Assembly: GCA_030648035.1 (NCBI GenBank)
Contig: JAUSII010000035.1
Span: 15,611-79,610 of the forward strand
DNA: 64,000 nt
Source of the DNA: Deltaproteobacteria bacterium
Lineage (GTDB): Bacteria; UBA10199; SPLOWO2-01-44-7
Direction: 5' to 3'
In this document: positions 12,698 through 37,217 of the stretch, piece after piece
How positions within the stretch are numbered: position 1 is the stretch's first letter
Layout: the number at the start of each line of letters is the position of its first letter
Notes under the pieces: generated by a model
What the model was told of the DNA's origin: nothing
What the model saw: only the letters and a program-made list of their open reading frames with translations
The model's database searches: none
Position numbers and translations under genes: made by a program

Positions 12698-12712
12698 GGG
12701 CTCTCCTTAAAT

Positions 12713-13150: not shown

Positions 13151-13204
13151 GGTGTTTCTCCTTTTGTGGTCTGCGAATAAGATGAATTTTAACAAGGAGC
13201 AACA

Positions 13205-13216
13205 TGATCTACATCA
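13205..13216. promoter_or_regulatory. FNR/Dnr/NnrR-type palindrome TGATctacATCA
   Basis: Exact palindromic arms with a...t flanks, centred in the 119-nt divergent gap. It lies about 54 nt from both the cyt c/nosZ operon start (13150) and the nnrS start (13270). Confidence 0.6.
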
Positions 13217-13269
13217 TATTGAAGAGCTTGGAAATGATATTTAAACAGGGAAAGCTTCTGGAGAAATAT

Positions 13270-14430
13270 ATGACTACCGCCAATCGTCAGAGTGATCCAT
13301 ATCAGTGGTTTTTTCCCTTGGGAATTTTTTTTGGTTTGGCAGGGGTCGTGTTGTGGGTGCTATTTGGATTCAAGGTTTTGCCGATGTATCCAACACTTCC
13401 CCATGCCGAAATCATGACAGGCGGTTTTTTGACGGCGATCGTTACCGGTTTTTTAATGACAGCCGTTCCCCGTTTTACCGGAACGCGTTCGGCCGGTCCG
13501 ATCGAAAAATGGACTCTTTTGGTCGTATTTTTGCTGATGTTTGTTACGGCTTTTCGTCCGGATCGTATCTGGTTTCATCTCGGAGGTTTTCTGGCTTTTT
13601 GTCTTTTGATCCGTTTCGGAATTTCCAGACTTCGTGTTTCGGTTTTTAAGCCAGGCCCCCCTTTCGTGCTGGTCGCTTTTGGTATTTTTTCAGGCGTTTG
13701 TTCCTTTGGCCTTTTGTTAGCCAAGGATTTTTATCCCCTGCCTTCGACTTTTGTTTATTTAGCCAGAATGCTTTTGTATTATGGCCTCTTTTTCTTTCCA
13801 GCGTTGGGTGTGGGAACACAGCTCATCCCATCCATTCTAGGGGTGGCGGTTCCCGTTGCAAAACCGATCGGAGCGACGCCGTTTCATCAACCTATCGGTC
13901 GCATGAAGGTCTATTTTTTATTTTTAGTTTATGGCGCGGGGTTATTTTTCTCCTTTGTTCTGGAGGCGCTCGGATTTTTTTTCACCGCACGTTTATTAAG
14001 GGCCGTTCTTGTCAGTGCCATTTTATTCATTCATTGGCATTTGCATCGCAGACCGAAGCCGATTGTGTTGTTAACGGCTGCTCTTTGGCTGAGTGGGTGG
14101 ATGATGTTTGTTGGAGTCTGGGTGGTGGCTTTGTGGCGCGGATTTGCTGTGCATGGAGCGCACATTCTTTTTATTGGCAGTCTCTCTGTTATGATTTTTT
14201 CAGTGATGACCCGCGTTGTTATTTCCCATGGGGGACATAACCCTCAAGTGGAACGAAATTCCAAAGCATTACTGGCGATGCTGATTTTTTTTATGGTTGC
14301 CCTTGTGACCCGTGTGAGTGCGCCGCTGGTTCCAAACTATTATTTTCATTTGGCTTATGCCGCCTTTTTTTGGATTGCGGGAGTGGTTTGCTGGATGATA
14401 ATATTTTTTCCGAAAATAATCCGAAAATAA
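13270..14430 (+). CDS. nnrS: NnrS-family membrane protein (NO-stress-associated heme-copper protein)
   Basis: About 386-aa polytopic protein with HAEIMTGGFLTAIVTGFLMTAVPRFTG, matching the NnrS signature (H-x-H/E-M...GFLLTA-P-W/F-TG). Located beside nos genes. Confidence 0.7.
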   Translation: MTTANRQSDPYQWFFPLGIFFGLAGVVLWVLFGFKVLPMYPTLPHAEIMTGGFLTAIVTGFLMTAVPRFTGTRSAGPIEKWTLLVVFLLMFVTAFRPDRIWFHLGGFLAFCLLIRFGISRLRVSVFKPGPPFVLVAFGIFSGVCSFGLLLAKDFYPLPSTFVYLARMLLYYGLFFFPALGVGTQLIPSILGVAVPVAKPIGATPFHQPIGRMKVYFLFLVYGAGLFFSFVLEALGFFFTARLLRAVLVSAILFIHWHLHRRPKPIVLLTAALWLSGWMMFVGVWVVALWRGFAVHGAHILFIGSLSVMIFSVMTRVVISHGGHNPQVERNSKALLAMLIFFMVALVTRVSAPLVPNYYFHLAYAAFFWIAGVVCWMIIFFPKIIRK

Positions 14431-14470: not shown

Positions 14471-15181
14471 ATGGTTAAAGCACCCCCCGTTCATTGTCAG
14501 ACCTGTCAGAGTCGCGGAGAGGGTATTTTCTGCGATTTAAGCGCGGAACATCTCAAAGAGCTTGATGCGGCAAAGACGACAAACCATTACAAGCCGCATC
14601 AGGTTATTTTTCATGAGGGGAATCAACCTCAGGGGCTGCATTGTGTTTCCTCCGGAAAGATAAAAATCTACAAGATGGATGCACAGGGGCACCAACAGAT
14701 TGTCCGTCTGGCGGGGCCGGGTGACGTGATGGGGTATCGTTGCCTGCTCACGAATGAAGGTTATTCCGCTACGGCGGAAACATTGGAAGAGGCGACAATC
14801 TGCTTTATAAATAAAGAGACTTTTTTGCATATCATCGAAACACATCCTGTAACCGCTTTTCATATCCTTTCCTCTCTGGCCAAAGATCTGGGGCGCGCTG
14901 AAAATCAGACCATGAACATGGTTCATAAAAATATCAGGGAGAGGTTGGCGGAGTTATTTCTCGTTTTCCACAAAAAATATGGAAAAAAGACAAGTCAGGG
15001 GATTGAATTGGACATCCTTCTTTCTCGCGAAGAGATGGCAGAGCTCATCGGCACCACTCAGGAATCGGTTATTCGTCTGATCAGCGAATTTAAACAGGAC
15101 GGCCTGATTGCGGTGGATGGCCGGCATATCACCCTTTTGAATATCAAAAAAATAATGGACCTCGCCAACCTTCCCGATTAA
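14471..15181 (+). CDS. Crp/Fnr-family transcription regulator, paralog 1
   Basis: cNMP-binding-type beta-roll and C-terminal HTH (REEMAELIGTTQESVIRLISEF). N-terminal Cys cluster C9-x2-C12-x8-C21 plus conserved internal Cys (GYRCLL), as in Fe-S-sensing FNR proteins. Confidence 0.8.
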   Translation: MVKAPPVHCQTCQSRGEGIFCDLSAEHLKELDAAKTTNHYKPHQVIFHEGNQPQGLHCVSSGKIKIYKMDAQGHQQIVRLAGPGDVMGYRCLLTNEGYSATAETLEEATICFINKETFLHIIETHPVTAFHILSSLAKDLGRAENQTMNMVHKNIRERLAELFLVFHKKYGKKTSQGIELDILLSREEMAELIGTTQESVIRLISEFKQDGLIAVDGRHITLLNIKKIMDLANLPD

Positions 15182-16467
15182 GGCCGCAATTCGTAAATCA
15201 TCCACTCTGAAAAACTTGTCGGTCCGGCATGCTTGGGCTGGTCTCCATCCCAGAGTTCAAACGAAACGTAGCCCACATCTGTAAGGGGGGCTTTGTTGTC
15301 ATTCGAAGGAGCGCGGGATCGTTTCAAAATAACGTGCCATTCCCCCTGGTCATAAACGCCATTGGCCAAAACACCGTTGTCTTTCCATTGCCAGAGGTCG
15401 ATCTTTTGGGAAGAGCTTCCAATTCCCAAATAGGGGAGATCTGCGGGGTTCGAAATTTTGTCCATCGGAAGTTGAATGGCCACCCCGTCATTTTGATTGG
15501 AATCTCTGTCGGCTTTGTCGTCTGCCCATCGGAGATAAAAAGCGACCTCTTCCTCTGTATGAAGCGCCTGCACTGTTATCCACTCTGTATTGCCCGGCTC
15601 ATGCCAAAGCGGCTTTAAAAAGACGGGAATTTTGGGAGACTTGGCCCAGGCTTCTTCCTTATAGTTCATGGGAATTTTGCCGTTTATCTTGTTGATGATG
15701 AGCAGGTTTCTTTTCGGATTGGAAGGATCGTAGTCCTTGGGAAACGGTTTTTGTATCGACTGGATGTAGTGGACCAGCGACCACAACTCTTTTTTGGTGA
15801 AAGTCTGTTCATAGCTGGGCATCGGCGTTCCGGGAACGCCAATCATCAGTGTGCGATAGATATCTCTGGGAAGATTGCCCCATTTGAGTGGTCCTTCTGT
15901 CAGATCGCGTGGTGCAATGCGGTCGCCCCAGACATCTTTTAAAACAATGGCTCCGGGACCATCCCCTTTTCCTCCCGGACCATGGCAGGCAATACAGCCC
16001 CTCTTCTCATACAATTGTCTTCCTTCTTGTATCGATTCGGGTGTTGTCTTGGTCTCTTCTGGAATATCGATCGGTGCCCCCTGTTTTTCGCTCGAGAGCT
16101 TGGGGGAAAGGGTTTTGAAATAGGTCAAAATGGAATACCAATCGTTTGTTTTGAGCACATCCCAGCCCGGCATGGAGGAGCCGGGGATTCCCATTTTCAT
16201 GGTTTGCAAAAGATCGAGGTCAGTGGGTATCAGTCCGCGATGGGTCCGGTATTTGAAAATGCCGATGGTGAAATCTCTCGGCTTCGGCCAGAGCAAACTG
16301 GCGGCGGGTCCTTTTCCATCCCCCTGATTGCCGTGGCAGGAGGCGCAGTGGACTGTATACAGTGCTTTGCCGCGTTGCATGGAAACTTCGCTGCTGGAAT
16401 CGCGGCACGATTTTTGGCAAGAGGTTGTGAGTAGAAGCAGAGCGACCAGCAAAAGATTTTTTTTCAT
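15178..16467 (-). CDS. Diheme cytochrome c fused to an EB_dh/DOMON-like (ethylbenzene-dehydrogenase gamma-type) heme-binding domain
   Basis: Signal/lipoprotein-like N-terminus and two class-I-type sites (HCASCHGNQGDGKGP, GCIACHGPGGKGDGPG). The C-terminal part reads ITVQALHTEEEVAFYLRWADDKADRD...DGVAIQLP...IDLWQWK, typical of EB_dh-like domains. Confidence 0.55.
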   Translation of the reverse strand: MKKNLLLVALLLLTTSCQKSCRDSSSEVSMQRGKALYTVHCASCHGNQGDGKGPAASLLWPKPRDFTIGIFKYRTHRGLIPTDLDLLQTMKMGIPGSSMPGWDVLKTNDWYSILTYFKTLSPKLSSEKQGAPIDIPEETKTTPESIQEGRQLYEKRGCIACHGPGGKGDGPGAIVLKDVWGDRIAPRDLTEGPLKWGNLPRDIYRTLMIGVPGTPMPSYEQTFTKKELWSLVHYIQSIQKPFPKDYDPSNPKRNLLIINKINGKIPMNYKEEAWAKSPKIPVFLKPLWHEPGNTEWITVQALHTEEEVAFYLRWADDKADRDSNQNDGVAIQLPMDKISNPADLPYLGIGSSSQKIDLWQWKDNGVLANGVYDQGEWHVILKRSRAPSNDNKAPLTDVGYVSFELWDGDQPKHAGPTSFSEWMIYELRP

Positions 16468-16484
16468 CCATCCCCCGTTTATTT

Positions 16485-17162
16485 TTATTTCAGCTCATGA
16501 GGCTTGTGGCAACTGATGCACTCCGTATCTTTTGGAATAGGCGGGTGCAATTTTTCTGTCTGAATTCTGTCGTGGCAGGTTTTACAAGAAGCCGTTGTTG
16601 GTTTCAAGTCTTCTCCCTTCGCCAGAAAGTTGTGGCATTGCAGACAGTGGATAAAAGACATTTTGCTGTTCCCTTCCATTTTATCTGGATGACATCCGGC
16701 GCAACTGTCGACCGGGCGAACGAACTCGTGAAGCCCTTTCATGTGACATTCCAGGCAATCGATGCCAGCTTTTTCAAAATGGACTTTGTGTCCGGCGGTG
16801 TTTCCGACCAGTTTCCACTGTGTGTCCTGGCTCAGGTGGCATTGTGCGCAGACTTTTTGATCGAGATTGGGATGGTGCACGACAGACTTTGGTTGTTCGG
16901 TGATATACATCCAGACTTGGTGAAGACTCTGCCATTTGGTCTGTTTGTGGCATTCATGACAGCTCACCATGTGATGGGGGCTCTCCTGCCATTTTTTGAA
17001 GGGTTCATCCATGGTATGACACGATTGGCAAAAACGGGGATCATGTTCCATGTAATCGTAGCCTTTATAGGCACCCACGGCGAAGAGGGCTACAAGGACA
17101 ATAACCGCGATCAATATTATTTTAAGTTTTTTGGAAATCTTTCTGATTTCAGTTCGCATCAT
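16485..17162 (-). CDS. Membrane-anchored octaheme c-type cytochrome (NapC/NirT/NrfH-like candidate quinol dehydrogenase)
   Basis: One N-terminal TM helix (IILIAVIVLVALFAVGAY) and eight CxxCH motifs (CQSCH, CHECH, CAQCH, CLECH, CAGCH, CLQCH, CKTCH, CISCH). ATG 17162 avoids a 56-nt overlap with hemY. Confidence 0.7.
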   Translation of the reverse strand: MMRTEIRKISKKLKIILIAVIVLVALFAVGAYKGYDYMEHDPRFCQSCHTMDEPFKKWQESPHHMVSCHECHKQTKWQSLHQVWMYITEQPKSVVHHPNLDQKVCAQCHLSQDTQWKLVGNTAGHKVHFEKAGIDCLECHMKGLHEFVRPVDSCAGCHPDKMEGNSKMSFIHCLQCHNFLAKGEDLKPTTASCKTCHDRIQTEKLHPPIPKDTECISCHKPHELK

Positions 17163-18486
17163 AAATATTTTGGACTTCTTGAACAGCGTTTCGCATCGTA
17201 TCATTAATCGAGATGCCAGAAAAGTAATTTCCGGTTAGATAGAGTCCTTTTGATAATTGCAGTTGTTCTTGAATCCCTCTCAACTTATTTTTATGTCCCA
17301 GAGTATATTGAGGAATGGCATTGGAAATTTTGGTGACGACGGAATCGGTCACCTTTAAGGCGCGACCCAGGAGAGGGTGGAGCTCCTCCACCACTTTTTG
17401 TAAAATGGCCTCTTCTGAAAGCATCATGGCTGAAGGATTTTTGGCGCCTCCTACAAAACAGGTTAATAACACAGATTGATCATCGGGACAGCGGCTGTCA
17501 AAGATAGTAGAGGACCAGAGGCAGCCCAACAAAAGATTGCTTTCTTTGGTTCCGGTGAGAAAGCCAAAACCGTTGAGGGGGCGTTTTAGTGTCGAGCGGT
17601 CGACCACGAGATGTACGACACTGACCGAAACGTAAGGAATGCTTTTTAAAACAATCGATAAGTTGGGATCCACTGTTTCCAAAAGGGAGGCTGCGGCATA
17701 GGCGGGTAATGCCAGCAGTATGGAAGAGGCCTCTTCTTCATGGGTTTTATCGGCCTGCTTCCATTTCACCCGCCAAGTCGATTTTTCTTTTATCAGCCGG
17801 ATATCCTGGCAATCGAGAAGGCATTGTTCCCGAACCTCTTCGTAGAGACCGTTGACCAATGTTTGTAAACCGTCATGGAAAGAAGAGAGGGTCTGTCCCT
17901 TGGAAAAAAGACGGGCCTTTGAGAGGGCTTTGAAAAGGCTTCCATATTCTTGTTCCCATTTTGCAATATTCGGCGCAATGGCCGGCATGCTCAAGTTTGC
18001 CGCATTTCCGGCGTAGATGCCGTGGATCATGGGACCCACCAGATGGAGAGCTTCTTTACCGAGGCGTCTTGTTACAAATTGGGCAACGCTCTCTTCTTCG
18101 GAAGAGTTTGCGGGAATAAGGGGCTCCATGAGCAGTCTCATTTTTCCCATGGGGCTAAGCAGGGATGTTTTAAAAAAATCAAAACCACTTTTGGGAACGC
18201 GTCTCAATTTGCGTTTGTGGAGGATGTAGCGGTTTTTGGCCGCCGGCTTTGAAGGGGTTTTTTGTTTTTGAATGTCCAATTCCCGGATGTGGTCCGCCAG
18301 CGTTTCCTGATTTTCCAAAAAACTGTTGGGCCCCATTTCCAACAGAAATCCATGATGTCGAAGGCTTTGAATGCGGCCCCCCCAACGGGAAGATTTTTCG
18401 AGCAAAAGAAAGGGTTTTCCCGCCTTTTTGAGTTGATAAGAAGCGGTCAGACCGGCGATGCCGGCGCCCAACACGATTGTTTTCAT
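17149..18486 (-). CDS. hemY: FAD-dependent protoporphyrinogen/coproporphyrinogen III oxidase (HemY type)
   Basis: N-terminal dinucleotide fold VLGAGIAGLTASYQL...LLEKSSRWGGRI. Size of 445 aa and overall pattern fit the HemY family. Confidence 0.75.
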   Translation of the reverse strand: MKTIVLGAGIAGLTASYQLKKAGKPFLLLEKSSRWGGRIQSLRHHGFLLEMGPNSFLENQETLADHIRELDIQKQKTPSKPAAKNRYILHKRKLRRVPKSGFDFFKTSLLSPMGKMRLLMEPLIPANSSEEESVAQFVTRRLGKEALHLVGPMIHGIYAGNAANLSMPAIAPNIAKWEQEYGSLFKALSKARLFSKGQTLSSFHDGLQTLVNGLYEEVREQCLLDCQDIRLIKEKSTWRVKWKQADKTHEEEASSILLALPAYAAASLLETVDPNLSIVLKSIPYVSVSVVHLVVDRSTLKRPLNGFGFLTGTKESNLLLGCLWSSTIFDSRCPDDQSVLLTCFVGGAKNPSAMMLSEEAILQKVVEELHPLLGRALKVTDSVVTKISNAIPQYTLGHKNKLRGIQEQLQLSKGLYLTGNYFSGISINDTMRNAVQEVQNIYDAN

Positions 18487-18525
18487 AATAAGAATTGGTT
18501 ATACACAGAATGGTTTTTACAAAAA

Positions 18526-18549
18526 TGATGTGTATCATGATTTATATCA
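18526..18549. promoter_or_regulatory. Two abutting FNR/Crp-type boxes, TGATgtgtATCA followed by TGATttatATCA
   Basis: Two exact motifs back to back in the 108-nt divergent gap between hemY (start 18486) and the giant cytochrome (start 18595). A perfect TATAAT lies at 18574-18579, 33 nt from the centre of box 2. Confidence 0.6.
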
Positions 18550-18594
18550 TTGGTAATATGATGAGTCTCTCCTTATAATGAGGGCGGTCAATTT

Positions 18595-21084
18595 ATGCCT
18601 ATATCAGGTCTGTCTAAGCGGTTTTCCTTTTCATTTTTATTGTGCCTCTTTCTTTTTTTTGTTGTGGGTTGCGGTCAGTCCAAGCCCTTGGGGTCCGGCT
18701 CCGTAGCGCAGGGTGATGCCAATCAGAACATATCCCCGGGTGGTAGTATTCCTATTGCTTCCAGCATTTTTCCCCATTCAGACAATTGGGCTGAACCGGC
18801 GCAACATGGAGGTTGGGTCAATCGGGATGGAGCCGAAACCTGTCTTAAGTGCCATGTCGAAATGGGCCCTGCAGATGGAGCCCCTTCTTGCAGTTCCTGC
18901 CACGCCTTGTTCCCGCATAAAGAAAACTGGGTGAAGAAGGAAAATCACGGGGAGTTTGTAACAAAAAATGGCCAAGCCTCTTGTGCCACCCAGTGCCATG
19001 GCACTGATTTGAAAGGGGGGCTGTCAGGAATCTCCTGCAGTTTGTGTCACACGATCTTTCCCCATTCCAGAACCTGGAAAAATGCGGAAGAGCATGGACC
19101 GGTAGCGAAAGAGGGCGGTAAAAATTTGTGCAAAGGGTGTCATGGCAATGATTTCCGTCGTGAAGTGAACGGTAAAAATTGTTTTAGCTGTCATGCTCTC
19201 TATCCGCATGAAGCTGGCTGGTTTGAGTTGGGCAAACACGGTGAATATGTGGTGCAAAATGGCACAGCTGGCTGTGCCACCCAATGTCACGGCCCCAATT
19301 TACAAGGAGGACTGTCGGGGAGGGCCTGTGATAGTTGTCATGTCATGATGCCGCATGCGGCCGGTTGGGGAACGTTTGAAGGACACGCCCGGCATATTGC
19401 GACAACCCTGGATCACAACCTGGTGACCTGCCAACGCTGTCATGGAGAAGATTATAGTCGCGAGATAAATGGCAAAAATTGTTTTAGCTGTCATGCCGGA
19501 TATCCTCATACCTCCAATTGGGGAGAGGGGAGTCAGCATGGGCCCATGGCTTATGGTTTGGGCAAACAGGGTTGTGCCACTTCCAATTGTCATGGAACCC
19601 GTTTTGAAGGCAATGTCCAGACCGGAGCCCCTTCTTGCACTGGATCCTGTCATGGGGTCACACCGCATGCCGATTATCCACATGAGTTGTCGCCAAAATG
19701 GATGACATTAGAAACCAGAAGAGAATCTTTGAGAGACGAAGCGTTTCATGGCGATCGATTTATTCGGGAACTTCAGCGGGGTGATGCGGCTCCGTGCAGT
19801 GCTTGCCATGGTGTCAATTATGACCGACCGGTCGGAGGCGCTCAATGTACCGTTTGCCATTCGCAAGGTGTAAGCCATAGGACTGTCGACGGTGTGGCCT
19901 GGAATTCTGGTACGGGTCATGGAAAGTTTTTTTCGAGTCAATTTAATGCAGTCAATCCCTCTTCCACTTGTCGCGCTTGCCATGGTAGCGCGATCGATTT
20001 TAATGCAACCCAAACGAGAGATGAGTTGCAAAGGCAATCCTTATGTTACACTTGTCATCTGGCGTATCCGCACATTGCCTTCCGCAACGACGGAAATAAT
20101 CATGCATGGGAACCGGTGGTGGCCAATGAATGTGGTCCACGCAATGTTACCAATTGGGGACATATTTTTGCTTTGATGAACGGCCCTCTTTTTTCGGATA
20201 CCCGCGCTACTTGCGGTGGAGGTGCTGGTGGCAGTTGCCATGCAGATGGTTTGAGAGCCTATCGAACCGGTAATGCAGCGGAGCCATGTGCTCTCTGCCA
20301 TAACGTGGCGACTACTTTGCCGCCACCCGATTTGCCGGAGTGCGAAGTCCCTCCTTCGGATCAACAGATTGCCGGGGCACCCATGGTGATCAGAACCTGG
20401 CCTCCAAGTGGAGAGCAAAATGCGGGTGTTTCTGGAACCGTCGTTGTGTATTTCAATGAGGCGATGTTCAGTCCCAGCGTCAAGCAGGCAGGGACAGTGG
20501 TTTTGCGTAAGGTGAGTGATGATTCCATAGTCCCGACAAGTCTGACTTGTCCCGACAATAATTGGTGCAAAACGACAACGCTACGACCCCTCAATCCTCT
20601 TCAAAACAACACAAACTATGAAATTCGTGTGACCACGGTTGCCAAAGATTGGGGTGGAACGCCGATGGCCGCAGAATATCGCGGGACTTTCAAAACGGTT
20701 CCTCTCGACGTCACTCGGCCGACGGTTGTCTCCACGGTTCCGGTCTCCGGTGCTGTTGGCATATCCGCCGACCTGCCGCAAATTGATGTTTTTTTTAGTG
20801 AATCGCTACGCCCTATCGGCCATCTTGGTTTCACCATAAAAGTGGTGAGAGTGTTCGATCCCAATCCGGAGGGGGGCGTTCTTAATGTGAGAGAGGGTTT
20901 TCTGGATTGTGTGACAGCCGACTGTCGGCAAACAAGATTTTCCATACCGGCACCACGCAGAGGATACCCACACCGGTTTGTTATTGGTGAAGCCTATACC
21001 GTGACCATTTTTGCCAGCCAGATTAAAGATCTGATGGGTAATGCGATGGCGGCAGATTATCACTGGACATTTACAACGCGTTAG
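18595..21084 (+). CDS. Giant lipoprotein multiheme c-type cytochrome with two C-terminal Ig-like domains
   Basis: Lipobox FVVGC. Thirteen CxxCH motifs plus CX3CH (three), CX4CH (one) and one CX7CH variant. A repeated CxxCH-xx-(F/Y/M)PH module. The C-terminal 240 aa are beta-rich and SbsA/Big-like (APMVIRTWPPSG..., RPTVVSTVPVSG...). Confidence 0.8.
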   Translation: MPISGLSKRFSFSFLLCLFLFFVVGCGQSKPLGSGSVAQGDANQNISPGGSIPIASSIFPHSDNWAEPAQHGGWVNRDGAETCLKCHVEMGPADGAPSCSSCHALFPHKENWVKKENHGEFVTKNGQASCATQCHGTDLKGGLSGISCSLCHTIFPHSRTWKNAEEHGPVAKEGGKNLCKGCHGNDFRREVNGKNCFSCHALYPHEAGWFELGKHGEYVVQNGTAGCATQCHGPNLQGGLSGRACDSCHVMMPHAAGWGTFEGHARHIATTLDHNLVTCQRCHGEDYSREINGKNCFSCHAGYPHTSNWGEGSQHGPMAYGLGKQGCATSNCHGTRFEGNVQTGAPSCTGSCHGVTPHADYPHELSPKWMTLETRRESLRDEAFHGDRFIRELQRGDAAPCSACHGVNYDRPVGGAQCTVCHSQGVSHRTVDGVAWNSGTGHGKFFSSQFNAVNPSSTCRACHGSAIDFNATQTRDELQRQSLCYTCHLAYPHIAFRNDGNNHAWEPVVANECGPRNVTNWGHIFALMNGPLFSDTRATCGGGAGGSCHADGLRAYRTGNAAEPCALCHNVATTLPPPDLPECEVPPSDQQIAGAPMVIRTWPPSGEQNAGVSGTVVVYFNEAMFSPSVKQAGTVVLRKVSDDSIVPTSLTCPDNNWCKTTTLRPLNPLQNNTNYEIRVTTVAKDWGGTPMAAEYRGTFKTVPLDVTRPTVVSTVPVSGAVGISADLPQIDVFFSESLRPIGHLGFTIKVVRVFDPNPEGGVLNVREGFLDCVTADCRQTRFSIPAPRRGYPHRFVIGEAYTVTIFASQIKDLMGNAMAADYHWTFTTR

Positions 21085-21115
21085 ATGAAAAAGGAATGCA
21101 AGGGGAGGGACGCGG

Positions 21116-22381
21116 TTGAAAAATGGACCTGTTTTTTTGAAGGGATGTTTTTTTCTCCTTTTTTTATTTTTTTCTCCTCTAAGCCTCCATGCGGCGGATT
21201 ATAGCGTTGATCTTTTGTCCATTGGTCAGGTTCGCAAAGCTCCCATCACCAACCAACAACAGATTCCTGAAAATGGTTATGTAGGTGGCACAGCCCATTT
21301 TGAAAAATGGAATTTTTCAAATCAGACCAACATGCGTTTCTTTCGGGATTTCGACAGCAAACTGGATGAATATGATCTCTACCAGACCGTTTTTCATCTG
21401 GAACCTGCAAAGGCATTGACACTTGATTTGGGAAGACAGTTCGTTAATCAGGGATTCATGGTGGAAATTTTGGATGGGATTCAGGCGACTGTCATTCCGG
21501 AGGAGCATGTTGCTGTCACTGGTTTTTCAGGTATTCCCCGGAGCATGGAATTTGGACAATTCAGAAAAAATGATCTTTTATTGACGGGCTTGTCGGTCGG
21601 TTTGAAAAATGTGGCCAGGACAAAGGCCTCCGTTCATGGCGCCTGGCGCTCCAACAATCTACATATCATGGATCTGAACAGCAATGATCAGGTGCAGGTG
21701 GGTGGAAATTTTTCACACCAGTTTGCGGTTAATATGATGCCGATGTTTTATAGTTTGGCGGAGTATGATACCACCGGAAAAGTTTTTAATACTGCCACGG
21801 TCGGGTTTGACCTCTACCCCTCCTCACGTTTTTCAATAAATGGTGAGGGAAATTATTACAACTTAAGCCGGGATCTTGACCTTCAAACCGTTCAAGCCAC
21901 TTATTCCAAGGGGCCCACGTTGAATGGGCGTTTTGCTTTCACTTGGAAAGTCGTTCCGCAGTTTCTCAATCTGGTTCCCAGTTACACTTTCAACCGGATG
22001 GGAGTCACGGCAACGAATGATTTTAAAAATGCCCATCAAGTCGATGCCGCTCTTCAACTGTTGCTGGAAGACGTGGGTCTTCGTGTGGAGCCGGCGTATT
22101 ATTATGCCAAAAGTTTTGGCGGAAGTTTGAAAGGGGCGAGGCTCGGTCTCCATAAAACATTCAATGACCGGTTGTATGCCGATTTGACTTTCGACTTTAC
22201 AGCCTACAAAAAAATTACCAACGACAATGACAACGCCTACTCCACCATTTTTTGGACCGGTTATGAGGTGGCGAAGGGGCTGACTCTTTCCGGAGGAATG
22301 GAATACAACAAGAACAATCTGTTTGATAAAGATATCAGGGGCTCTTTCAGACTCGATTATCATCTGAATCGTGGGAGTTAA
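21116..22381 (+). CDS. Predicted outer-membrane beta-barrel (porin partner of the cytochrome cluster)
   Basis: Signal peptide ending LSLHA-AD. Alternating hydrophobic beta-strand periodicity, rich in Tyr/Gly/Asn/Phe. TTG start with a GGGGAGGGA SD. No family recognised by eye. Confidence 0.45.
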   Translation: MKNGPVFLKGCFFLLFLFFSPLSLHAADYSVDLLSIGQVRKAPITNQQQIPENGYVGGTAHFEKWNFSNQTNMRFFRDFDSKLDEYDLYQTVFHLEPAKALTLDLGRQFVNQGFMVEILDGIQATVIPEEHVAVTGFSGIPRSMEFGQFRKNDLLLTGLSVGLKNVARTKASVHGAWRSNNLHIMDLNSNDQVQVGGNFSHQFAVNMMPMFYSLAEYDTTGKVFNTATVGFDLYPSSRFSINGEGNYYNLSRDLDLQTVQATYSKGPTLNGRFAFTWKVVPQFLNLVPSYTFNRMGVTATNDFKNAHQVDAALQLLLEDVGLRVEPAYYYAKSFGGSLKGARLGLHKTFNDRLYADLTFDFTAYKKITNDNDNAYSTIFWTGYEVAKGLTLSGGMEYNKNNLFDKDIRGSFRLDYHLNRGS

Positions 22382-22382
22382 A

Positions 22383-22955
22383 ATGAGAAAGAATTTATTG
22401 AAATCGGGATTTCTTCTGCTGATGGCGCTTTTTCTTTTGTATGCCGGAAGCGTGCAATCCAAAGCCAAAAAACAGACACATCCCTTTGATCTGTTCGATC
22501 ATGAAATGCACACCGGCATTTTTGAGGGGGTCAGTTTTTCGTGCGAAAACTGCCATGCCGATCCCGAATCGTTTCAGGATCGCAAAAAGATAAACCGGTT
22601 GGGATGTCATATGTGCCATAACAATCCCAATCCACCGGTGCCGGGCACGCAGGATTGCAAAGTTTGTCATGCCAGTGGGTTTCCAAAACCGGAAAGTCAT
22701 AAAACCGCATGGATTGCCAAACATCAGACCTACGCCAAACAGGATCCGCAATATTGCACCCAGTGTCATTCCAATGCGATGTTCTGTGTCGATTGTCATC
22801 AGCGTCGTGACACGATCCAGACCAAGATGCACCAGAGGAATTTTTTATTTTATCACTCGATCGAAGCGAGGGCCAACCCGCGCAAGTGTGACGAATGTCA
22901 TAGTATCAACTATTGTGAGCAGTGCCATTCTGGAAAGGGGAATTCCAAAAAATGA
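22383..22955 (+). CDS. Periplasmic heptaheme c-type cytochrome
   Basis: Signal peptide and seven CxxCH motifs (CENCH, CHMCH, CKVCH, CTQCH, CVDCH, CDECH, CEQCH) in 190 aa. The ATG lies 1 nt after the barrel gene's stop. Confidence 0.8.
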   Translation: MRKNLLKSGFLLLMALFLLYAGSVQSKAKKQTHPFDLFDHEMHTGIFEGVSFSCENCHADPESFQDRKKINRLGCHMCHNNPNPPVPGTQDCKVCHASGFPKPESHKTAWIAKHQTYAKQDPQYCTQCHSNAMFCVDCHQRRDTIQTKMHQRNFLFYHSIEARANPRKCDECHSINYCEQCHSGKGNSKK

Positions 22956-23260
22956 AGGGGCTGTTTTTAATCATATTGTTTTGTTCTTTAGCCGTGGTTA
23001 CTAGTTGCGGCGGGAGCGCCTTCAATGAAGGAGAAAATTTCGGCAATCTTCTCGACACCACTGGCGGTTTGACCTTAAGCCAATCCGAGCATGAAATTGG
23101 CTGGGGGCAGGCGGATTGTTTGCCTTGTCATAATCTGGAGAATATTCATCTGGTCAACCGGACGGGAACCGCCATTGATATCGTCGCCATTCACAATCAG
23201 GCCTTGAGCGGGGGCATTGCCAGCTGTGCCAGCTGTCACGGCAATAATGGGGCTCCGTAA
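22952..23260 (+). CDS. Small diheme c-type cytochrome lipoprotein
   Basis: Lipobox VVTSC, with CLPCH and CASCH. ATGA overlap with the heptaheme gene's stop. Confidence 0.7.
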   Translation: MKGLFLIILFCSLAVVTSCGGSAFNEGENFGNLLDTTGGLTLSQSEHEIGWGQADCLPCHNLENIHLVNRTGTAIDIVAIHNQALSGGIASCASCHGNNGAP

Positions 23261-23280
23261 AAATATGGGATGGGGGGAGT

Positions 23281-23970
23281 ATGAAGAAAATAACGGTCAT
23301 TGGGAGTATTTGTCTGGTTTTTCTGTTTTCTTCCGATCGGGCTTGGGGAAAAAACAGCTGTATTTCTTGCCATCAGGAGCAGACCCAGTCCAAGCGCCTC
23401 GAACATAATTATGCCGACTGGAAAAAATCGATTCATGCCTCCAAGGGGATAGGATGTGATGCCTGTCATGGTGGTCATTCCGACACCTTCAATCCGGTCA
23501 ATGCTCATGAGGGGGTGTTGTCCTCCCGCGATAAAAATTCACCCATCTATTTTCAGAATATTCCCAAAACCTGCGGGCAATGTCATGTGGAGGAGCTGAA
23601 GGAATTTCAAAAAAGCGTTCACTATAAATTGCTCGAGGATTCCGGCAAAGGTCCAAATTGTCTGACTTGTCATGGGTCGATGGCAACCACCATTCTGGCC
23701 CACTCGCAACTCGATCAGACCTGTTCTCTTTGCCACGGCAAACCGATTCAGGCAGCCAAGGCGTTGAGCCTCATACAGTCGATTAAAAACTCACTGGATG
23801 TGCTGCAGAAAAAAAAGGGCCAATATGAAAATAAAGAAAAGATCACCGAATTTTGGGCGCGTTACAGGGAAATTCAAAAAAAATGGCACTCTTTTGATAT
23901 TGCCGCTTTGACAAATAAGTCCAAAGAGTTGTTGAAAGAGATCAAGGAGTTTGAAAAAAAATGCAAATAG
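23281..23970 (+). CDS. Pentaheme c-type cytochrome
   Basis: Signal peptide and five CxxCH motifs (CISCH, CDACH, CGQCH, CLTCH, CSLCH). Helical, Lys/Glu-rich C-terminal tail. Confidence 0.8.
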   Translation: MKKITVIGSICLVFLFSSDRAWGKNSCISCHQEQTQSKRLEHNYADWKKSIHASKGIGCDACHGGHSDTFNPVNAHEGVLSSRDKNSPIYFQNIPKTCGQCHVEELKEFQKSVHYKLLEDSGKGPNCLTCHGSMATTILAHSQLDQTCSLCHGKPIQAAKALSLIQSIKNSLDVLQKKKGQYENKEKITEFWARYREIQKKWHSFDIAALTNKSKELLKEIKEFEKKCK

Positions 23971-24443
23971 ATCGGCGCGATTTTTTGAAATATTCCATTT
24001 GGGGTTTGGGCCTTCTGGCAGGGGCCTCCCTCTTTGTTCCGGGAGCCGGATATTTTTTGTCGCCGGCATGGAAGGAGATGACGGAAGACTGGATTTTGTT
24101 GGGAGATGCCGACAAAATTCCGGTGGGAGAGCCAACCAAGCTGGAGTTCGTGCAACGGCGCAAAGATGGATGGATGACGGTGGAAAAAAAACGTTCAGCG
24201 TGGATTTTAACTCAAGACGGAAAATCTTTTACCGCTTTTGATCCGCATTGCACGCATTTGGGATGCCCTTACCGATGGGATGTCTCCAAACAGGAATTTC
24301 TTTGCCCGTGCCACAATGCCGTGTTCGGTATCAATGGCAATGTCATTTCCGGTCCGCCACCCAGGCCCCTGGATCGCTACGCGACACGCATGGAAGATGG
24401 AAAGTTGTGGCTACTCCCCGTGCTGGAAAAGGAAAAAACTTAA
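23961..24443 (+). CDS. Rieske [2Fe-2S] protein (Tat-exported) of a bc/b6f-type complex
   Basis: Twin-arginine signal MQIDRRDFLK. Rieske boxes CTHLGC and CPCHNAVF. Overlaps the pentaheme gene by 10 nt. Confidence 0.9.
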   Translation: MQIDRRDFLKYSIWGLGLLAGASLFVPGAGYFLSPAWKEMTEDWILLGDADKIPVGEPTKLEFVQRRKDGWMTVEKKRSAWILTQDGKSFTAFDPHCTHLGCPYRWDVSKQEFLCPCHNAVFGINGNVISGPPPRPLDRYATRMEDGKLWLLPVLEKEKT

Positions 24444-24447
24444 AAAA

Positions 24448-26055
24448 ATGCATCGTCTTTCAAAATGGGTTCAGGAACGGTTGGGGTGGAAAGATATTCG
24501 TGAGACTCTGCTCGATCGGAAAATCCCCAGTCCCGGCCGTTGGGGATGGCTCTACACACTCGGTTCGGCCACTCTCGCCGTTTTTATTTTGCAGGTTGTT
24601 ACCGGCACGCTACTCGGGATGAATTATTCCCCCTCGCCGGATCATGCCTACGATTCCATCCGCTACATCATGACGCAGGTGCCCATGGGGAGTCTCATCC
24701 GGGGACTCCACAAATGGGGAGCAACCGCCATGATCGTGCTGTTGCTTCTGCACATGCTTCGCATTTATGTAATGGCCTCTTACAAGCGCCCCCGGGAAAT
24801 AACCTGGATGGTCGGTATCATTCTCCTGTTGGTCGGTTTTGGTTTGGGGTTCACCGGCTATCTTCTCCCGTGGGATCAGAAAGCCTATTGGGCAACCGCT
24901 GTGGGGGCCAACATTGCCGCGCAAGCCCCTTTTTTTGGGCCCATGATTGCCAAGATTTTAAAGGGAGGCGAAGAATTGGGAGCCCTCACACTGACCCGCT
25001 TCTATGGGCTTCATGTTCTGGTTTTGCCGATCACGATGGGGCTCCTGATTGGAGCGCATCTTTTTCTGGTGATATACCACGGTATTTCGGCGCCGCCCTC
25101 TCGCAAGGTGCCTCCGCCCGACTATCAGGATCTTAAGGCAAAAGGAAAACCATTTTATCCGCACAGCATTTTCAAAGATGTGGTGATGGTGCTGATTGTC
25201 TTTGCCATCATTTTTTTTCTGGCCCTTCATTATGGCGCAGGACTTGAAGATCCGGTCAATCCAAATGATACAAGCTACAATCCAAGGCCGGAATGGTATT
25301 TTCTTTTCCTGTTTCAAATGTTGAAACTGTTTCCGGGCAAGTGGGAGCCGATTGCCGCTGTGGTTATCCCGACGCTTATTGTCGCTTTTTTGTTTTTTCT
25401 TCCGCTTCTGGATAGAAGAGAAGACAGGCATCCACTTGCAAGACCCTTTTGGATGGGCATTGGAAGTGCGGCGCTTTTTTTTGTGATTTGGCTTTCATAT
25501 CAGGGGTGGAAGTCGCCTCTGCTCAATCCGCAAATTGAAAAAAATCCGATGGTTTTGCAGGGAAAAAAACTCTATGACGATCTCCGCTGTTCCTATTGCC
25601 ACTCCATGAAGGGAGAAGGGGGAACTATCGGCCCCGATCTCATCCAAACCGTTTCTACCCGGTCAGATGAGTGGATCATGGAACATTTTAAAAAACCACG
25701 GGCGAAAGTGGCACAGTCGATGATGCCGGAGCTCAATCTTTTGGACGAGGAGATACAGGCTCTCATTGCCTATTTGCGGGAAGTCGGAGGCGGTGGCGCT
25801 TCGGTGACATCGGCCATGAAAATTTATGTTGAAAATTGCCAGGACTGTCATCGGTTGGGAAAAAGGGGGGAAGATGTTGGGCCCAACTTAAGTCAGATTG
25901 GAAGTTTTCGCGAGGCCAGCTGGATTCAAAATTATATTTCCAATCCGAAGCTTCTCAATCCCGATTCCGTCATGCCGGAATTTGGAACCAGTCTGTCCAA
26001 AGAAGAAATTGAAAATATGGCCCGGTTTCTAGCCGGTCAAAAAGGGATGCCCTAA
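24448..26055 (+). CDS. Cytochrome b (b6 plus subunit-IV-like) fused to a C-terminal diheme cytochrome c
   Basis: Heme-ligand helices (GLHKWGATAMIVLLLLHMLRIY), GYLLPWDQ and the Qo-site PEWYFLFLFQ motif. C-terminal CSYCH and CQDCH class-I domains. ATG 24448 lies 4 nt after the Rieske stop. Confidence 0.85.
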   Translation: MHRLSKWVQERLGWKDIRETLLDRKIPSPGRWGWLYTLGSATLAVFILQVVTGTLLGMNYSPSPDHAYDSIRYIMTQVPMGSLIRGLHKWGATAMIVLLLLHMLRIYVMASYKRPREITWMVGIILLLVGFGLGFTGYLLPWDQKAYWATAVGANIAAQAPFFGPMIAKILKGGEELGALTLTRFYGLHVLVLPITMGLLIGAHLFLVIYHGISAPPSRKVPPPDYQDLKAKGKPFYPHSIFKDVVMVLIVFAIIFFLALHYGAGLEDPVNPNDTSYNPRPEWYFLFLFQMLKLFPGKWEPIAAVVIPTLIVAFLFFLPLLDRREDRHPLARPFWMGIGSAALFFVIWLSYQGWKSPLLNPQIEKNPMVLQGKKLYDDLRCSYCHSMKGEGGTIGPDLIQTVSTRSDEWIMEHFKKPRAKVAQSMMPELNLLDEEIQALIAYLREVGGGGASVTSAMKIYVENCQDCHRLGKRGEDVGPNLSQIGSFREASWIQNYISNPKLLNPDSVMPEFGTSLSKEEIENMARFLAGQKGMP

Positions 26056-26760
26056 TCAGCCTGGTGTCTGTTTCACGACATAAATTCCATCGGCAATTTC
26101 ACGATCGATCGCCACTTCTGTTTCATCCACCTTTAAAACAAAAGTAGGACGTTTCTGCAAAAGATGGAGGGATGCGCCTGGCAAGACGCCAAGACCTGAA
26201 AGTCTCTCCAATAGGGCGTGATATTTTGGTGCGATAAAAATAATGCGATAATTGTCGCCGGTCTCTTCCTGACTTAAGGGTGTTACCAAGGGGCGAACCG
26301 CATTGACAAACGATTTGCAACAATCTCCCGGCGGGATCGGTCTGCCGTGCGGGCAGGTGGGGGGATGCCCCAAAAAAGAACAGATCCCCTCGACGGCTTC
26401 GGGGGTTAAAACTTTTTCGTGTTCCATGCGGCAGGCTTGAGCGCGGACCGCCTCTTCTGAAAGATTGAAGACCACCGCAAAGAGTCTCTCGGCCAATCGG
26501 TTTCTGCGAATAAGAGAGCTGGCCCGTTCTTCTCCTTTTGTGGAAAGTTTTACAAAAACACCATGGGGAAGTACCAGATTTTCCTGCCCCAATTCGAGGG
26601 TTGCCTTGGATACCTCTTGGGGATTCACTTTGGATAGGCAGTGGTCGAGCTCCTCTTTTCCGTTTTCACGGTTGAGCCATGCGCGGACCAGAATATGGTC
26701 TTTGATTTCGTCAATCCCCAATGCTTCGTCGTTATCGTGGTGATGATCGTGATTGTTCAT
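26056..26760 (-). CDS. DtxR/MntR-family metal-dependent regulator fused to a C-terminal FeoA/SH3-like domain
   Basis: RRNRLAERLF...MEHE...FLGHPPTCPHGRPIP (DtxR metal/dimerisation signature). His-rich N-terminus MNNHDHHHD. C-terminal small beta-domain (VLPGASLHLLQKRPTFVLKVDETEVAIDREIADGIYV). ATGA overlap with the upstream small ORF. Confidence 0.65.
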   Translation of the reverse strand: MNNHDHHHDNDEALGIDEIKDHILVRAWLNRENGKEELDHCLSKVNPQEVSKATLELGQENLVLPHGVFVKLSTKGEERASSLIRRNRLAERLFAVVFNLSEEAVRAQACRMEHEKVLTPEAVEGICSFLGHPPTCPHGRPIPPGDCCKSFVNAVRPLVTPLSQEETGDNYRIIFIAPKYHALLERLSGLGVLPGASLHLLQKRPTFVLKVDETEVAIDREIADGIYVVKQTPG

Positions 26761-29480: not shown

Positions 29481-30002
29481 ATGCAGAACTCGAAACATTA
29501 TTTTAGAGCTGGAGCCCTTGTTATTGGAGGGCTTTTCCTCTTTCTTTTGGTCCGTAGCTTTCTAGTCCCCTCTTCCTTCGGTAAATATGGACCTTATAGG
29601 GGAGATAATGTTCGGGAACAGATGGCCAAGCCGACCAGTTATAGTGCCCCCAATGCCTGCGCCGATTGCCATCCCGATGTTTGGAAAAAGCATTCAGCAG
29701 GAAAACATGCCCCTCTTCCCTGTCAGGATTGTCATGCGCCGTTAAGTCAGCATTTTGATTTGGAAAAAGGAGAATTGATTGGTCCGATGCCAATTCAAAA
29801 AACATCCAAATTATGTTTGCGCTGTCATCTGAAGCTTCCATCGAGACCGGCGTCATTCCCGCAAATCAACCCGGAAGATCATTTGATTCGTGTGCCGGAA
29901 GCGCGTCAGGCCGATGTCTGTTTCCGTTGCCATAATCCCCATAGTCCCGCGCTTCGCAAAAAAAATGTTGAAGCGGTTCCGGTTGGAGAAATCCCCCAAT
30001 GA
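29481..30002 (+). CDS. Membrane-anchored tetraheme c-type cytochrome
   Basis: N-terminal TM helix and four CxxCH motifs (CADCH, CQDCH, CLRCH, CFRCH). ATGA overlap with the next gene. Confidence 0.75.
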   Translation: MQNSKHYFRAGALVIGGLFLFLLVRSFLVPSSFGKYGPYRGDNVREQMAKPTSYSAPNACADCHPDVWKKHSAGKHAPLPCQDCHAPLSQHFDLEKGELIGPMPIQKTSKLCLRCHLKLPSRPASFPQINPEDHLIRVPEARQADVCFRCHNPHSPALRKKNVEAVPVGEIPQ

Positions 30003-30808
30003 AAAAACAAAATGAAACAGCAAAGCCAATTTGTGAGGAAATGGGAAGACGCGATTTTATCAAGAAAGGTTGTGAGTTGGCGGCCGCCGCTCTTTTTGTC
30101 GGCATTTTGCCAATCAAAAAGGTTTTTGCATTGGGAGAGCAACCTGCTCCTGTGCCGGGGGCGCCAGAAGGCTACGATTGGTTGGAACATCTCTATGCCT
30201 ATGTCATCGACACCACCAAATGCATCGGTTGCGGCATGTGTGTTGAGGCCTGTCGCAAAGAAAACAATGTGCCGGAGGGATTTTCCAGAACATGGGTGGA
30301 GCGCTATGAGATTTCTGAAAGGGGGGAAGTCGAGGTCGACTCACCCAAAGGGGGGGAGGAAGGATTCGGCCTGATCAGCCCAGGCTTCAATGTTTCCAAA
30401 GGCTATTTTGTTCCAAAGATGTGCAACCATTGCTCCAACTCTCCCTGTATTCAGGTCTGTCCGGTTGGAGCCTCTTATCGGACAAAAGATGGTGTGGTTT
30501 TGGTGGATGATAAGCGTTGCGTCGGTTGTGGGTATTGCGTGCAGGCCTGCCCCTACGCCAGCCGCTTTATTAATCCGGAAACGAAAACAGCGGAAAAATG
30601 CACCTGGTGTTATCACCGCATTACCAAGGGTTTGAAACCGGCTTGTGTTCAGGCGTGTCCAACCGGCGCCAGAATGTTTGGCGATCTGAAAAATGAGGAC
30701 GATCCGGTTCGTAAAATTATTGCAACCGAAAGACTCGCAGTGTTGCAACCGGAAAAACTGACGAAGCCCAGCTGTTTTTATCTGGGACTTGATAAGGAGG
30801 TCCGGTGA
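29999..30808 (+). CDS. Tat-exported 4Fe-4S ferredoxin-type subunit (NrfC/DmsB/PsrB-like)
   Basis: RRDFIKK twin-arginine signal. Four Cys clusters (CIGCGMCVEACR, CNHCSNSPCIQVCP, CVGCGYCVQACP, CTWC...CVQACP). Confidence 0.85.
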   Translation: MKKQNETAKPICEEMGRRDFIKKGCELAAAALFVGILPIKKVFALGEQPAPVPGAPEGYDWLEHLYAYVIDTTKCIGCGMCVEACRKENNVPEGFSRTWVERYEISERGEVEVDSPKGGEEGFGLISPGFNVSKGYFVPKMCNHCSNSPCIQVCPVGASYRTKDGVVLVDDKRCVGCGYCVQACPYASRFINPETKTAEKCTWCYHRITKGLKPACVQACPTGARMFGDLKNEDDPVRKIIATERLAVLQPEKLTKPSCFYLGLDKEVR

Positions 30809-37209: not shown

Positions 37210-37217
37210 TCCTCGTG

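Follow-up and report, generated by a model that had tools for sequence, protein, structure and literature searches.

Described conduits and the locus under study

To our knowledge, the transfer of electrons between the quinone pool and an outer-membrane conduit is well worked out only in Shewanella and, in part, in Geobacter. The extHIJKLMNOPQS cluster, conserved across Geobacter, contains the genes for the porin ExtI, multihaem cytochromes, the Rieske protein ExtO, the cytochrome b ExtP, ExtQ and the cytochrome c lipoprotein ExtS (PMC5877670). Porin-cytochrome c (Pcc) clusters "often associate" with cytoplasmic-membrane cytochromes, and their published ranges comprise a porin of 18-22 strands, a periplasmic cytochrome with 5-14 haems and an outer cytochrome often carrying atypical CX3-15CH motifs, similarity to OmbB/OmaB family members being set at BLAST E<0.01; in Shi et al. 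(2014), Group III includes the clusters found in Desulfurobacterium thermolithotrophum and in Thermovibrio ammonificans, with a "six typical plus atypical" cytoplasmic-membrane cytochrome (PMC4245776). The PCC3 and PCC4 clusters include their own cytochrome-b-like inner-membrane protein, accompanied in PCC4 subgroup II by a pfam13247 Fe-S protein (PMC5566968), and the mto cluster of Sideroxydans encodes its own inner-membrane NapC/NirT partner (10.1101/2022.01.10.475773). The locus described here was found in an uncultured groundwater Deltaproteobacteria bacterium (assembly GCA_030648035.1, contig JAUSII010000035.1), within a stretch of 64,000 nucleotides that is referred to as the window; seven genes on its + strand (g1-g7, 18595-26055) join a predicted Pcc-type outer-membrane conduit to a Rieske/cytochrome b complex in a single operon. 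The original prediction on this DNA took such a combination for a module not yet described, a view contradicted by the Geobacter ext cluster, where porin, cytochromes, Rieske protein and cytochrome b are already joined.

Organization of the seven-gene operon

The operon is made up of two separable respiratory modules, i.e., g1-g4 and g5-g7, whose genes are the following:

18595-21084, + strand: g1, 829-aa lipoprotein multihaem cytochrome with ~48-aa CXXCH-x2-PH repeats and two C-terminal Big_5 domains; proposed cell-surface component
21116-22381, + strand: g2, 421-aa signal-peptide, 22-strand outer-membrane beta-barrel (AlphaFold2, Foldseek); putative Pcc-type porin
22383-22955, + strand: g3, 190-aa Sec-exported heptahaem cytochrome; putative periplasmic partner of the barrel
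22952-23260, + strand: g4, 102-aa dihaem lipoprotein
23281-23970, + strand: g5, 229-aa pentahaem cytochrome, exported by Sec and ending in a helical tail, opening the Rieske/cytochrome b module
23961-24443, + strand: g6, 160-aa Rieske [2Fe-2S] protein with a twin-arginine translocation (Tat) signal and the boxes CTHLGC and CPCHNAVF
24448-26055, + strand: g7, 535-aa protein in which a b6-like cytochrome b is fused to subunit IV (PEWY) and to two monohaem c domains

All seven open reading frames (ORFs) are present and co-directional as predicted, with starts taken at 18595 (g1), 21116 (g2, a TTG), 22383 (g3), 22952 (g4), 23281 (g5), 23961 (g6) and 24448 (g7). The public gene call of g2 is 414 aa, and its start may lie a few codons downstream of 21116. 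The tight spacing is also real: g1 and g2 are 31 nt apart and g2 and g3 1 nt, g3 and g4 overlap by 4 nt (ATGA), 20 nt separate g4 from g5, g5 and g6 overlap by 10 nt, and g7 starts 4 nt after g6, with all intergenic gaps at or below 31 nt. The 20-nt gap between g4 and g5 harbors neither a regulatory box nor a terminator-like site, in agreement with the proposal that conduit and Rieske/cytochrome b genes belong here to the same transcriptional unit; the terminator scan was at chance level overall (14 seen versus 13.9 expected), which makes it weak evidence either way on internal termination.

The CXXCH motifs of g1-g7 number 13, 0, 7, 2, 5, 0 and 2, respectively, giving exactly the minimum of 29 canonical haems that had been claimed and agreeing with the description of g3, g4 and g5 as hepta-, di- and pentahaem proteins. 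Beyond its 13 canonical motifs, g1 contains four atypical ones (three CX3CH and one CX4CH); it might thus bind up to 17 haems, which would bring the whole operon to ~29-33. Searches of the Pfam and NCBIfam models recovered the two immunoglobulin (Ig)-like domains of g1 (Big_5 twice, E=6.5e-23), matched g3 and g5 to cytochrome c7/c3-type models, identified g6 as a Rieske protein (E=3.8e-10) and resolved g7 into Cytochrome_B (E=2e-46), Cytochrom_B_C and two class-I cytochrome c domains, with a PEWY motif, so that the cytochrome b/subunit-IV fusion with its own dihaem c region stands as first described. Direct reading of the sequences disclosed the lipoboxes of g1 (VVGC) and g4 (VTSC), as expected for lipoproteins, Sec signals in g2, g3 and g5, and in g6 the N-terminal RRDFLK of a Tat-exported protein together with CTHLGC and CPCH.

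The predicted outer-membrane conduit encoded by g1-g4

The assignment of g2 to the beta-barrels was borne out by an AlphaFold2 model, constructed on an alignment of 42 family members, which consists of a signal helix and 22 strands (mean predicted local distance difference test score, pLDDT, 87.7; predicted template modelling score, pTM, 0.77). A Foldseek search with this model retrieved only outer-membrane barrels (FimD/PapC ushers, OccK/OprD and AlgE), with TM scores up to ~0.55; since MtrB was not in the top 50, structural kinship of g2 to MtrB is not claimed. The MtrB model suggested for recognizing the porin (PF11854) did not match g2, nor did any other Pfam or NCBIfam model; at E<=10, neither g2 nor the Aquificota barrel (see below) was matched in NCBIfam, and g2 is neither assigned to nor excluded from ExtI, OmbB or other named porin families on this basis.

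The barrel belongs to a small, unannotated family of 43 close proteins, all from groundwater metagenome-assembled genomes (MAGs) named "Deltaproteobacteria bacterium". An exhaustive profile search with the barrel alignment gave 303 representatives; ten of these clusters were looked up, and the named ones were all "Deltaproteobacteria bacterium" MAGs. A scan of genome contigs with the single g2 sequence gave no match and the alignment-based one did; the word-indexed homologue search with g3 remained confined to the lineage, without reaching Geobacter, and the sequence search against the PDB yielded nothing meaningful for g1 and only marginal matches for g3 and g5.

The g2-g3 pair is conserved out to the Desulfurobacteriaceae (Aquificota), with 24-27% identity for the barrel and 35-44% for the heptahaem protein (tblastn to Thermovibrio and Desulfurobacterium MAG clusters: E ~1e-14 and ~1e-27, respectively). 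Further along, the Desulfurobacteriaceae clusters encode two cytochromes with 7 and 6+1 haems, respectively, an FdnI-like cytochrome b, a trihaem protein and one with 24 haems, which matches the description of Group III, including the 6+1-haem cytochrome and the FdnI-like cytochrome b. As for the published Pcc ranges, g2 has 22 strands; g3, starting 1 nt past g2, carries a Sec signal and seven CXXCH; g1 combines the VVGC lipobox with 13 CXXCH, three CX3CH and one CX4CH. Since g1-g3 fall inside these ranges and g2 and g3 are homologous to the Desulfurobacterium/Thermovibrio Pcc clusters, g1-g4 are predicted to form a Pcc-type conduit of a remote, uncharacterized subfamily, likened to Geobacter OmbB/OmaB by description and to the Desulfurobacteriaceae by sequence similarity.

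Barrels of 22 strands belong to the size class of the TonB-dependent receptors, whose plug is made up of ~150 residues; on this analogy, the 165-residue heptahaem g3 could enter the g2 lumen at least in part. As a separate observation, large cytochromes with 22-24 haems (803-892 aa) end the Desulfurobacteriaceae Pcc clusters of loci L013, L016 and L022 (~16030-18740) and that of a related MAG (L011, 16223-18634).

The Rieske/cytochrome b module g5-g7

The g6 protein bears a Tat signal and the two Rieske boxes, CTHLGC at residue 97 and CPCH at residue 115, and g7 the haem-b ligands H88-x13-H102 and H189-x14-H204, followed by PEWY at 281. The closest PDB matches of g7 are cytochromes b6 (E ~1e-49), and at the position of haem ci a Thr, not a Cys, is read. 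These features identify g5-g7 as a genuine Qo-site Rieske/cytochrome b complex, with g6 and g7 as its canonical core. It is known that a Ser and a Tyr in Rieske box II raise the potential in ubiquinol- and plastoquinol-type complexes; box II of g6 (CPCHNAVF) is devoid of both, which would make the cluster a low-potential, menaquinol-type one, and the complex probably uses menaquinol.

The g7 fusion has widely distributed homologues (at least 591 matches), which occur in Acidobacteriota, Chloroflexota, Gemmatimonadota, Nitrospiria, FCPU426, Elusimicrobia and Myxococcota, and a Rieske gene is located directly upstream in 79 of the 80 best loci. The g5 gene is peculiar to the module of this lineage, and L009 and L043 retain the whole g5-g6-g7 triplet; in sequence, its product only weakly resembles ActA, the pentahaem subunit of alternative complex III (ACIII; 8k9e, 6lod and 6f0k, E 1e-3 to 0.08).

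Gene order in related genomes

The window proteins were compared by tblastn with 42 related loci. The seven-gene order, whose conservation the original prediction had made a test of the operon, was found in none of them, and no related locus has g4 followed by g5. The seven genes are therefore not conserved as a unit, although conduit and Rieske/cytochrome b genes are linked within ~12 kb in three other genomes. The genes g1-g4 travel together in close relatives, except that g1 is at times found elsewhere or in two copies: it adjoins the barrel in L001-L006, L009 and L028-L030, but not in L007, L008 and L031, where it is displaced or inverted. The g3 gene is directly downstream of the barrel in every locus reaching past it, Desulfurobacteriaceae included, and g4 follows g3 in all close relatives with a contig long enough. 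In the RIFCSP relatives (L001/L004, 8393-9994), a second g1 paralogue is located between g1 and the barrel (531 aa, 39% identity); it aligns to g1 residues 20-583 only, apparently without the Ig-like C-terminus.

In the window, the g7 stop abuts the stop of a convergent DtxR-FeoA gene, with 0 nt between them (26055-26056). In RIFCSPLOWO2_12_FULL_44_12 and RIFCSPHIGHO2_01_FULL_43_49, on the other hand, g4 is directly followed by the convergent DtxR-FeoA and FeoB genes, so that the same DtxR gene abuts g4 instead (L001, ~12136-12148), and g5-g6-g7 are found on the same contig, ~11 kb off and on the opposite strand, followed by the cytochrome c-EB_dh gene and with MtrAB-like genes on the flanks. 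This suggests that the Rieske/cytochrome b module was inserted or lost exactly at the junction, and the order of the window is best read as a lineage-specific relocation of g5-g7 into the g4/DtxR junction.

A different arrangement occurs in L009/L010 (MAG nzgw604), where g5-g6-g7-cytochrome-NrfC-NrfD-g1-g2-g3-g4 are co-directional and tightly spaced, and L007 shows g7-like-cytochrome-NrfC-NrfD-g1. The cytochrome-NrfC-NrfD set is the most constant neighbor of g1, being directly upstream in L005, L009 and L007 and divergent in L001 and L004.

Promoter boxes and the putative regulon

The features of the promoter region and the regulator gene encoded nearby are the following:

18525-18550, + strand: two ATGAT-N4-ATCAT palindromes of FNR/CRP type (18525-18538 and 18537-18550), with 2 nt in common
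18550-18579, + strand: sigma-70-like promoter from a consensus scan, TTGGTA, 18-nt spacer, TATAAT (10/12 matches)
14471-15181, + strand: Crp/FNR-family regulator with an N-terminal Cys cluster (Pfam cNMP_binding and HTH_Crp_2)

Two abutting FNR-type boxes had been predicted. The two palindromes do exist, but their sequence is ATGAT-N4-ATCAT and not the canonical TTGAT-N4-ATCAA. In the window, the exact palindrome occurs four times (0.13 expected) and its core TGAT-N4-ATCA nine times (1.41 expected). Since the canonical FNR consensus with two mismatches allowed is at chance level (52 found versus 51.5 expected), the enrichment concerns only the specific ATGAT/TGAT palindrome. The center of the second box falls ~40-45 nt before the start deduced from the coordinates, which would correspond to a class II position, and the operon's promoter probably responds to low oxygen. 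A candidate binder of the boxes is the Crp/FNR-family protein encoded at 14471-15181, whose own gene is preceded by a box at 14433.

A TGAT-N4-ATCA box precedes g1 in the window and in L001, g5 in L009 and L043 (in both cases ~60-70 nt upstream) and mtrA in L043, and the variant TGAT-N4-GTCA is found before g1 in L003 and L005. The picture is that of a rearranging "respiratory island" under one FNR/CRP-type regulon, with no fixed operon. A further pair of TGAT-N4-ATCA boxes, 22 nt apart (47622-47655), lies at the 3' end of a glutamyl-tRNA reductase (hemA-like) gene (46586-47677), just upstream of the ORF 47691-48413, and may tie haem synthesis to the same regulator.

Neighboring genes in the window

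The genes flanking the operon include further conduits, possible electron acceptors and other quinone-interacting modules:

2415-3689: Cyc2-like fused monohaem cytochrome-porin, CXXCH at residue 38
3837-4844: decahaem MtrA/MtoA-like cytochrome
4854-7019: MtrB_PioB porin (PF11854, E=2.5e-84)
7016-13195, - strand: nitrous oxide (N2O) reductase cluster, with ABC genes (7016-8537), NosD (8534-9805), NosZ (10790-12697) and a monohaem cytochrome c (12713-13195)
13204-14430: NnrS, divergent from the N2O reductase cluster
15178-16467: lipoprotein with two cytochrome c domains and an EB_dh (haem-b/DOMON-like) domain
16485-17204, - strand: membrane-anchored octahaem NapC/NirT-type cytochrome, an alternative quinol-side partner, 1.4 kb upstream of g1
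29481-32028, + strand: tetrahaem cytochrome with an NrfC-like 4Fe-4S protein and an NrfD-like membrane protein, forming a second module that interacts with quinone

The operon 2415-7019 thus contains a second and a third outer-membrane conduit, behind an ATGAT-N4-ATCAT box at 2322. The AlphaFold2 model of the 2415-3689 ORF shows a small helical haem domain and a barrel of ~16-18 strands (pLDDT 85). TGAT-N4-ATCA boxes are also present in the nos/nnrS region, at 13205 and 13293, suggesting that the N2O reductase cluster probably belongs to the regulon of the conduit operon.

According to the original prediction, conduits of this kind are normally fed by quinol dehydrogenases encoded elsewhere. 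This does not apply here: the octahaem NapC/NirT-type gene is located 1.4 kb from g1, and the NrfCD module is the commoner neighbor of g1 in relatives. A homologue of the NapC/NirT-type gene is divergently adjacent to g5 in L009. A homologue of the 15178-16467 lipoprotein is found directly after g7 in L043 and near the barrel in L007; this protein may serve the Rieske/cytochrome b module as an accessory electron carrier. Lastly, the region 32034-45275 harbors a malic enzyme gene, two 2-oxoacid:ferredoxin oxidoreductase (OFOR) gene sets and Rnf-type genes (RnfC-like, 40351-41703; Rnf-Nqr membrane subunit, 37218-38093), which indicate a ferredoxin-based anaerobic metabolism.

Recurrence of g7-type complexes beside other conduits

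An outer-membrane cytochrome-porin gene was found within 10 kb in 9 of the 80 closest g7 loci, and an MtrAB-like or Cyc2-like gene within the same distance in four of the six closest (L043, L044, L047 and L048); in L058, too, a g7-type complex is near an outer-membrane conduit gene. Runs of consecutive, co-directional genes of two kinds were found in Gemmatimonadota MAGs. In L106 (9368-15201), genes for a Rieske protein, a cytochrome b/c, a decahaem MtrA-like and an MtrB-like protein are consecutive and co-directional, and the order Rieske-cytochrome b/cc-Cyc2-like is shared by L082 (~9499-12736), L109 (~9493-13092) and L116 (~5616-8861). The third protein of the latter loci (395-413 aa, one N-terminal CXXCH, C-terminal aromatic residue) is homologous to the window ORF 2415-3689. 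The literature searched contained no description of Gemmatimonadota Rieske-cytochrome b-MtrAB-like or Rieske-cytochrome b-Cyc2-like arrangements.

Judged from these counts, it is improbable that mere chance has linked this Rieske/cytochrome b clade to three different types of conduit. It might be tentatively proposed, at a level of confidence well short of even, that the b6-like Rieske/cytochrome b-dihaem c clade is a recurrent, dedicated inner-membrane partner of Pcc-, MtrAB- and Cyc2-type conduits, three unrelated architectures, across several phyla. If so, it would represent a general "complex III for extracellular electron exchange", possibly reversed for lithotrophic Fe(II) oxidation, spanning the groundwater "Deltaproteobacteria" lineage, Gemmatimonadota, Elusimicrobia and FCPU426, mostly uncultured phyla. 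Should the enrichment hold, this idea would be of more interest than the operon itself.

Possible function and direction of the electron flow

On balance, we lean towards the view that the conduit and the Rieske/cytochrome b modules are coupled, so that electrons could pass between the quinone pool and the cell surface; the degrees of confidence attached to this and to the readings discussed below overlap and do not sum to one. According to this scheme, the heptahaem g3 would plug into the g2 porin from the periplasmic side, g1, with its 13-17 haems and two Ig-like domains, would be a surface lipoprotein and g4 a small dihaem one, the soluble pentahaem g5 would serve as an additional electron carrier, and the c haems of g7 together with g5 would exchange electrons with g3. 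In the outward direction, quinol oxidation through the Q cycle would conserve energy, and electrons would pass via the c haems to a high-potential acceptor outside the cell, e.g., Mn(IV) or Fe(III), or to the periplasmic NosZ. Outward flow is slightly favored among the coupled schemes; it fits the anaerobic-type regulation common to the conduit operon and the N2O reductase cluster 7016-13195.

Several observations weigh against such a coupling. No porin is near the g7 homologue in 71 of the 80 closest loci, which makes the complex a general quinol:cytochrome c oxidoreductase; conversely, g1-g4 occur without Rieske/cytochrome b genes in the available flanks of L003, L006, L008 and L031. The N2O reductase cluster, 6 kb upstream and with the same box, could be the true acceptor, and the conduit has alternative partners in the NapC-type cytochrome and the NrfCD module.

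A possible, though rather doubtful, alternative, put forward in the original prediction as bifurcated or uphill flow from an extracellular donor, is that electrons flow inward. The conduit would oxidize extracellular Fe(II), a solid or a cathodic donor, part of the electrons going downhill to NosZ or an oxidase and the rest uphill through a reversed Rieske/cytochrome b complex, which would spend proton-motive force to reduce menaquinone and, in turn, NAD(P)H/ferredoxin for CO2 fixation. Characterized Cyc2 proteins act as Fe(II) oxidases, as listed in Table 1 of PMC10654088, and the regulon with the same box includes the Cyc2-like and MtoA/MtoB-like genes of 2415-7019; moreover, the Gemmatimonadota Rieske-cytochrome b-Cyc2-like operons make most sense if the bc complex links Cyc2 and the quinone pool. 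With a low-potential Rieske cluster, as proposed for CPCHNAVF, the uphill step would be small for electrons from Fe(II) at neutral pH; OFOR/pyruvate:ferredoxin oxidoreductase and Rnf genes are nearby, and precedents exist in the petI operon of A. ferrooxidans and in the ACIII/bc1 models for iron oxidizers. However, periplasmic N2O reduction straight from Fe(II) would conserve no energy, the Pcc-type conduits characterized to date work in metal reduction (PMC4245776), and the direction is not fixed by sequence.

It is less probable still, and on the whole unlikely, that the two modules are adjacent without being wired together, i.e., that the Rieske/cytochrome b complex feeds periplasmic reductases, chiefly NosZ, and the NapC-type cytochrome or NrfCD feeds the conduit, the modules being in one operon only because all of them belong to a common anaerobic regulon within a rearranging island. 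The different order of the modules in every genome examined, the greater constancy of NrfCD beside g1, the scarcity of porins near g7-type complexes and the boxes of the nos/nnrS region are all consistent with this; in addition, clade II N2O respiration in Wolinella reportedly depends on a Rieske/cytochrome bc complex (Hein et al. 2017). On the other side, the 10 kb around g5-g7 in L043 and in L009 contained no NosZ, MtrAB- or Cyc2-like genes accompany most of the six closest g7 loci, as reported above, and several independent operons of other phyla join Rieske/cytochrome b genes directly to an outer-membrane cytochrome-porin. Finally, an assimilatory role, in which the conduit would reduce Fe(III) outside the cell and thereby supply the neighboring FeoB with Fe(II), rather than take part in respiration, is very improbable, even though both the window and the RIFCSP genomes have DtxR-FeoA and FeoB genes right after the cluster and L008 a DtxR homologue beside the barrel, given that ~29-33 haems and a Q-cycle complex go far beyond the needs of assimilation, that the promoter has FNR-type boxes and no DtxR or Fur box seen by eye in 18487-18594, and that the Feo linkage is absent in L003, L005, L006 and L009/L010.

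Under the coupled scheme favored here, this operon, together with the independent ones of other phyla in which Rieske/cytochrome b genes accompany MtrAB-like or Cyc2-like genes, suggests that uncultured bacteria of the subsurface commonly rely on Q-cycle complexes as inner-membrane partners when exchanging electrons with the outside. Complexes of this kind would conserve energy in the forward direction and could be reversed by proton-motive force, which bears both on the energy yield of Mn/Fe respiration and on the origin of reducing power in neutrophilic iron oxidizers. The operon itself represents a compact, seven-gene target for heterologous testing.

Comparison with known systems

Sequence likeness to the ext cluster of Geobacter sulfurreducens (GSU2940-GSU2930) is seen in g5 and g7: the g7 N-terminus scores 215.6 bits on ExtP (cut-off 290), its c domain 41.6 on ExtS (cut-off 100) and g5 26 on ExtM (cut-off 800). 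Since all of these matches fall under the curated NCBIfam equivalog cut-offs, the proteins are regarded as homologous to, and not members of, the Ext families. Unlike ext, the operon lacks the rhodanese ExtH and the selenocysteine cytochrome ExtKL, its cytochrome b, subunit IV and cytochrome c are fused in g7, its outer cytochrome g1 has Ig-like domains, and its barrel has no NCBIfam match.

With the Pcc systems (Geobacter OmbB-OmaB-OmcB; Group III), the locus shares the anatomy of porin, periplasmic cytochrome and outer lipoprotein cytochrome; it differs from them in the order, here omc-omb-oma, and in the additional dihaem lipoprotein, and from those of Aquificota also in the inner-membrane partner, which is an FdnI-like cytochrome b there and a Rieske/cytochrome b complex here. 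The working principle of MtrCAB, MtoAB and PioAB, i.e., a periplasmic multihaem cytochrome inserted in a porin, would be the same, but g2 has 22 strands versus ~26-28, and a true MtrB_PioB porin and a decahaem MtrA-like cytochrome are encoded separately, at 3837-7019. The PCC3 and PCC4 clusters of neutrophilic iron oxidizers, compared by description, likewise combine in one cluster a porin, a periplasmic multihaem cytochrome and a dedicated inner-membrane cytochrome-b-like protein; the latter, however, is a 5-helix, fumarate reductase (FRD)-like dihaem protein, and the haem counts of PCC3 are much larger. In Acidithiobacillus ferrooxidans, the petI (cycA-sdrA-petABC) and rus operons similarly involve a bc1 complex that is devoted to electron transfer from extracellular iron and for which reverse operation has been proposed; there, Cyc2 and bc1 are encoded in separate operons, the system is of ubiquinone type and acidophilic, and no Pcc-type porin is involved. 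Taken together, the operon is a rearranged version of a Geobacter ext-like combination, analogous to it rather than a new system, and the transcriptional fusion of conduit and Rieske/cytochrome b genes, as deduced from gene order and spacing, appears in the window's genome alone among those examined.

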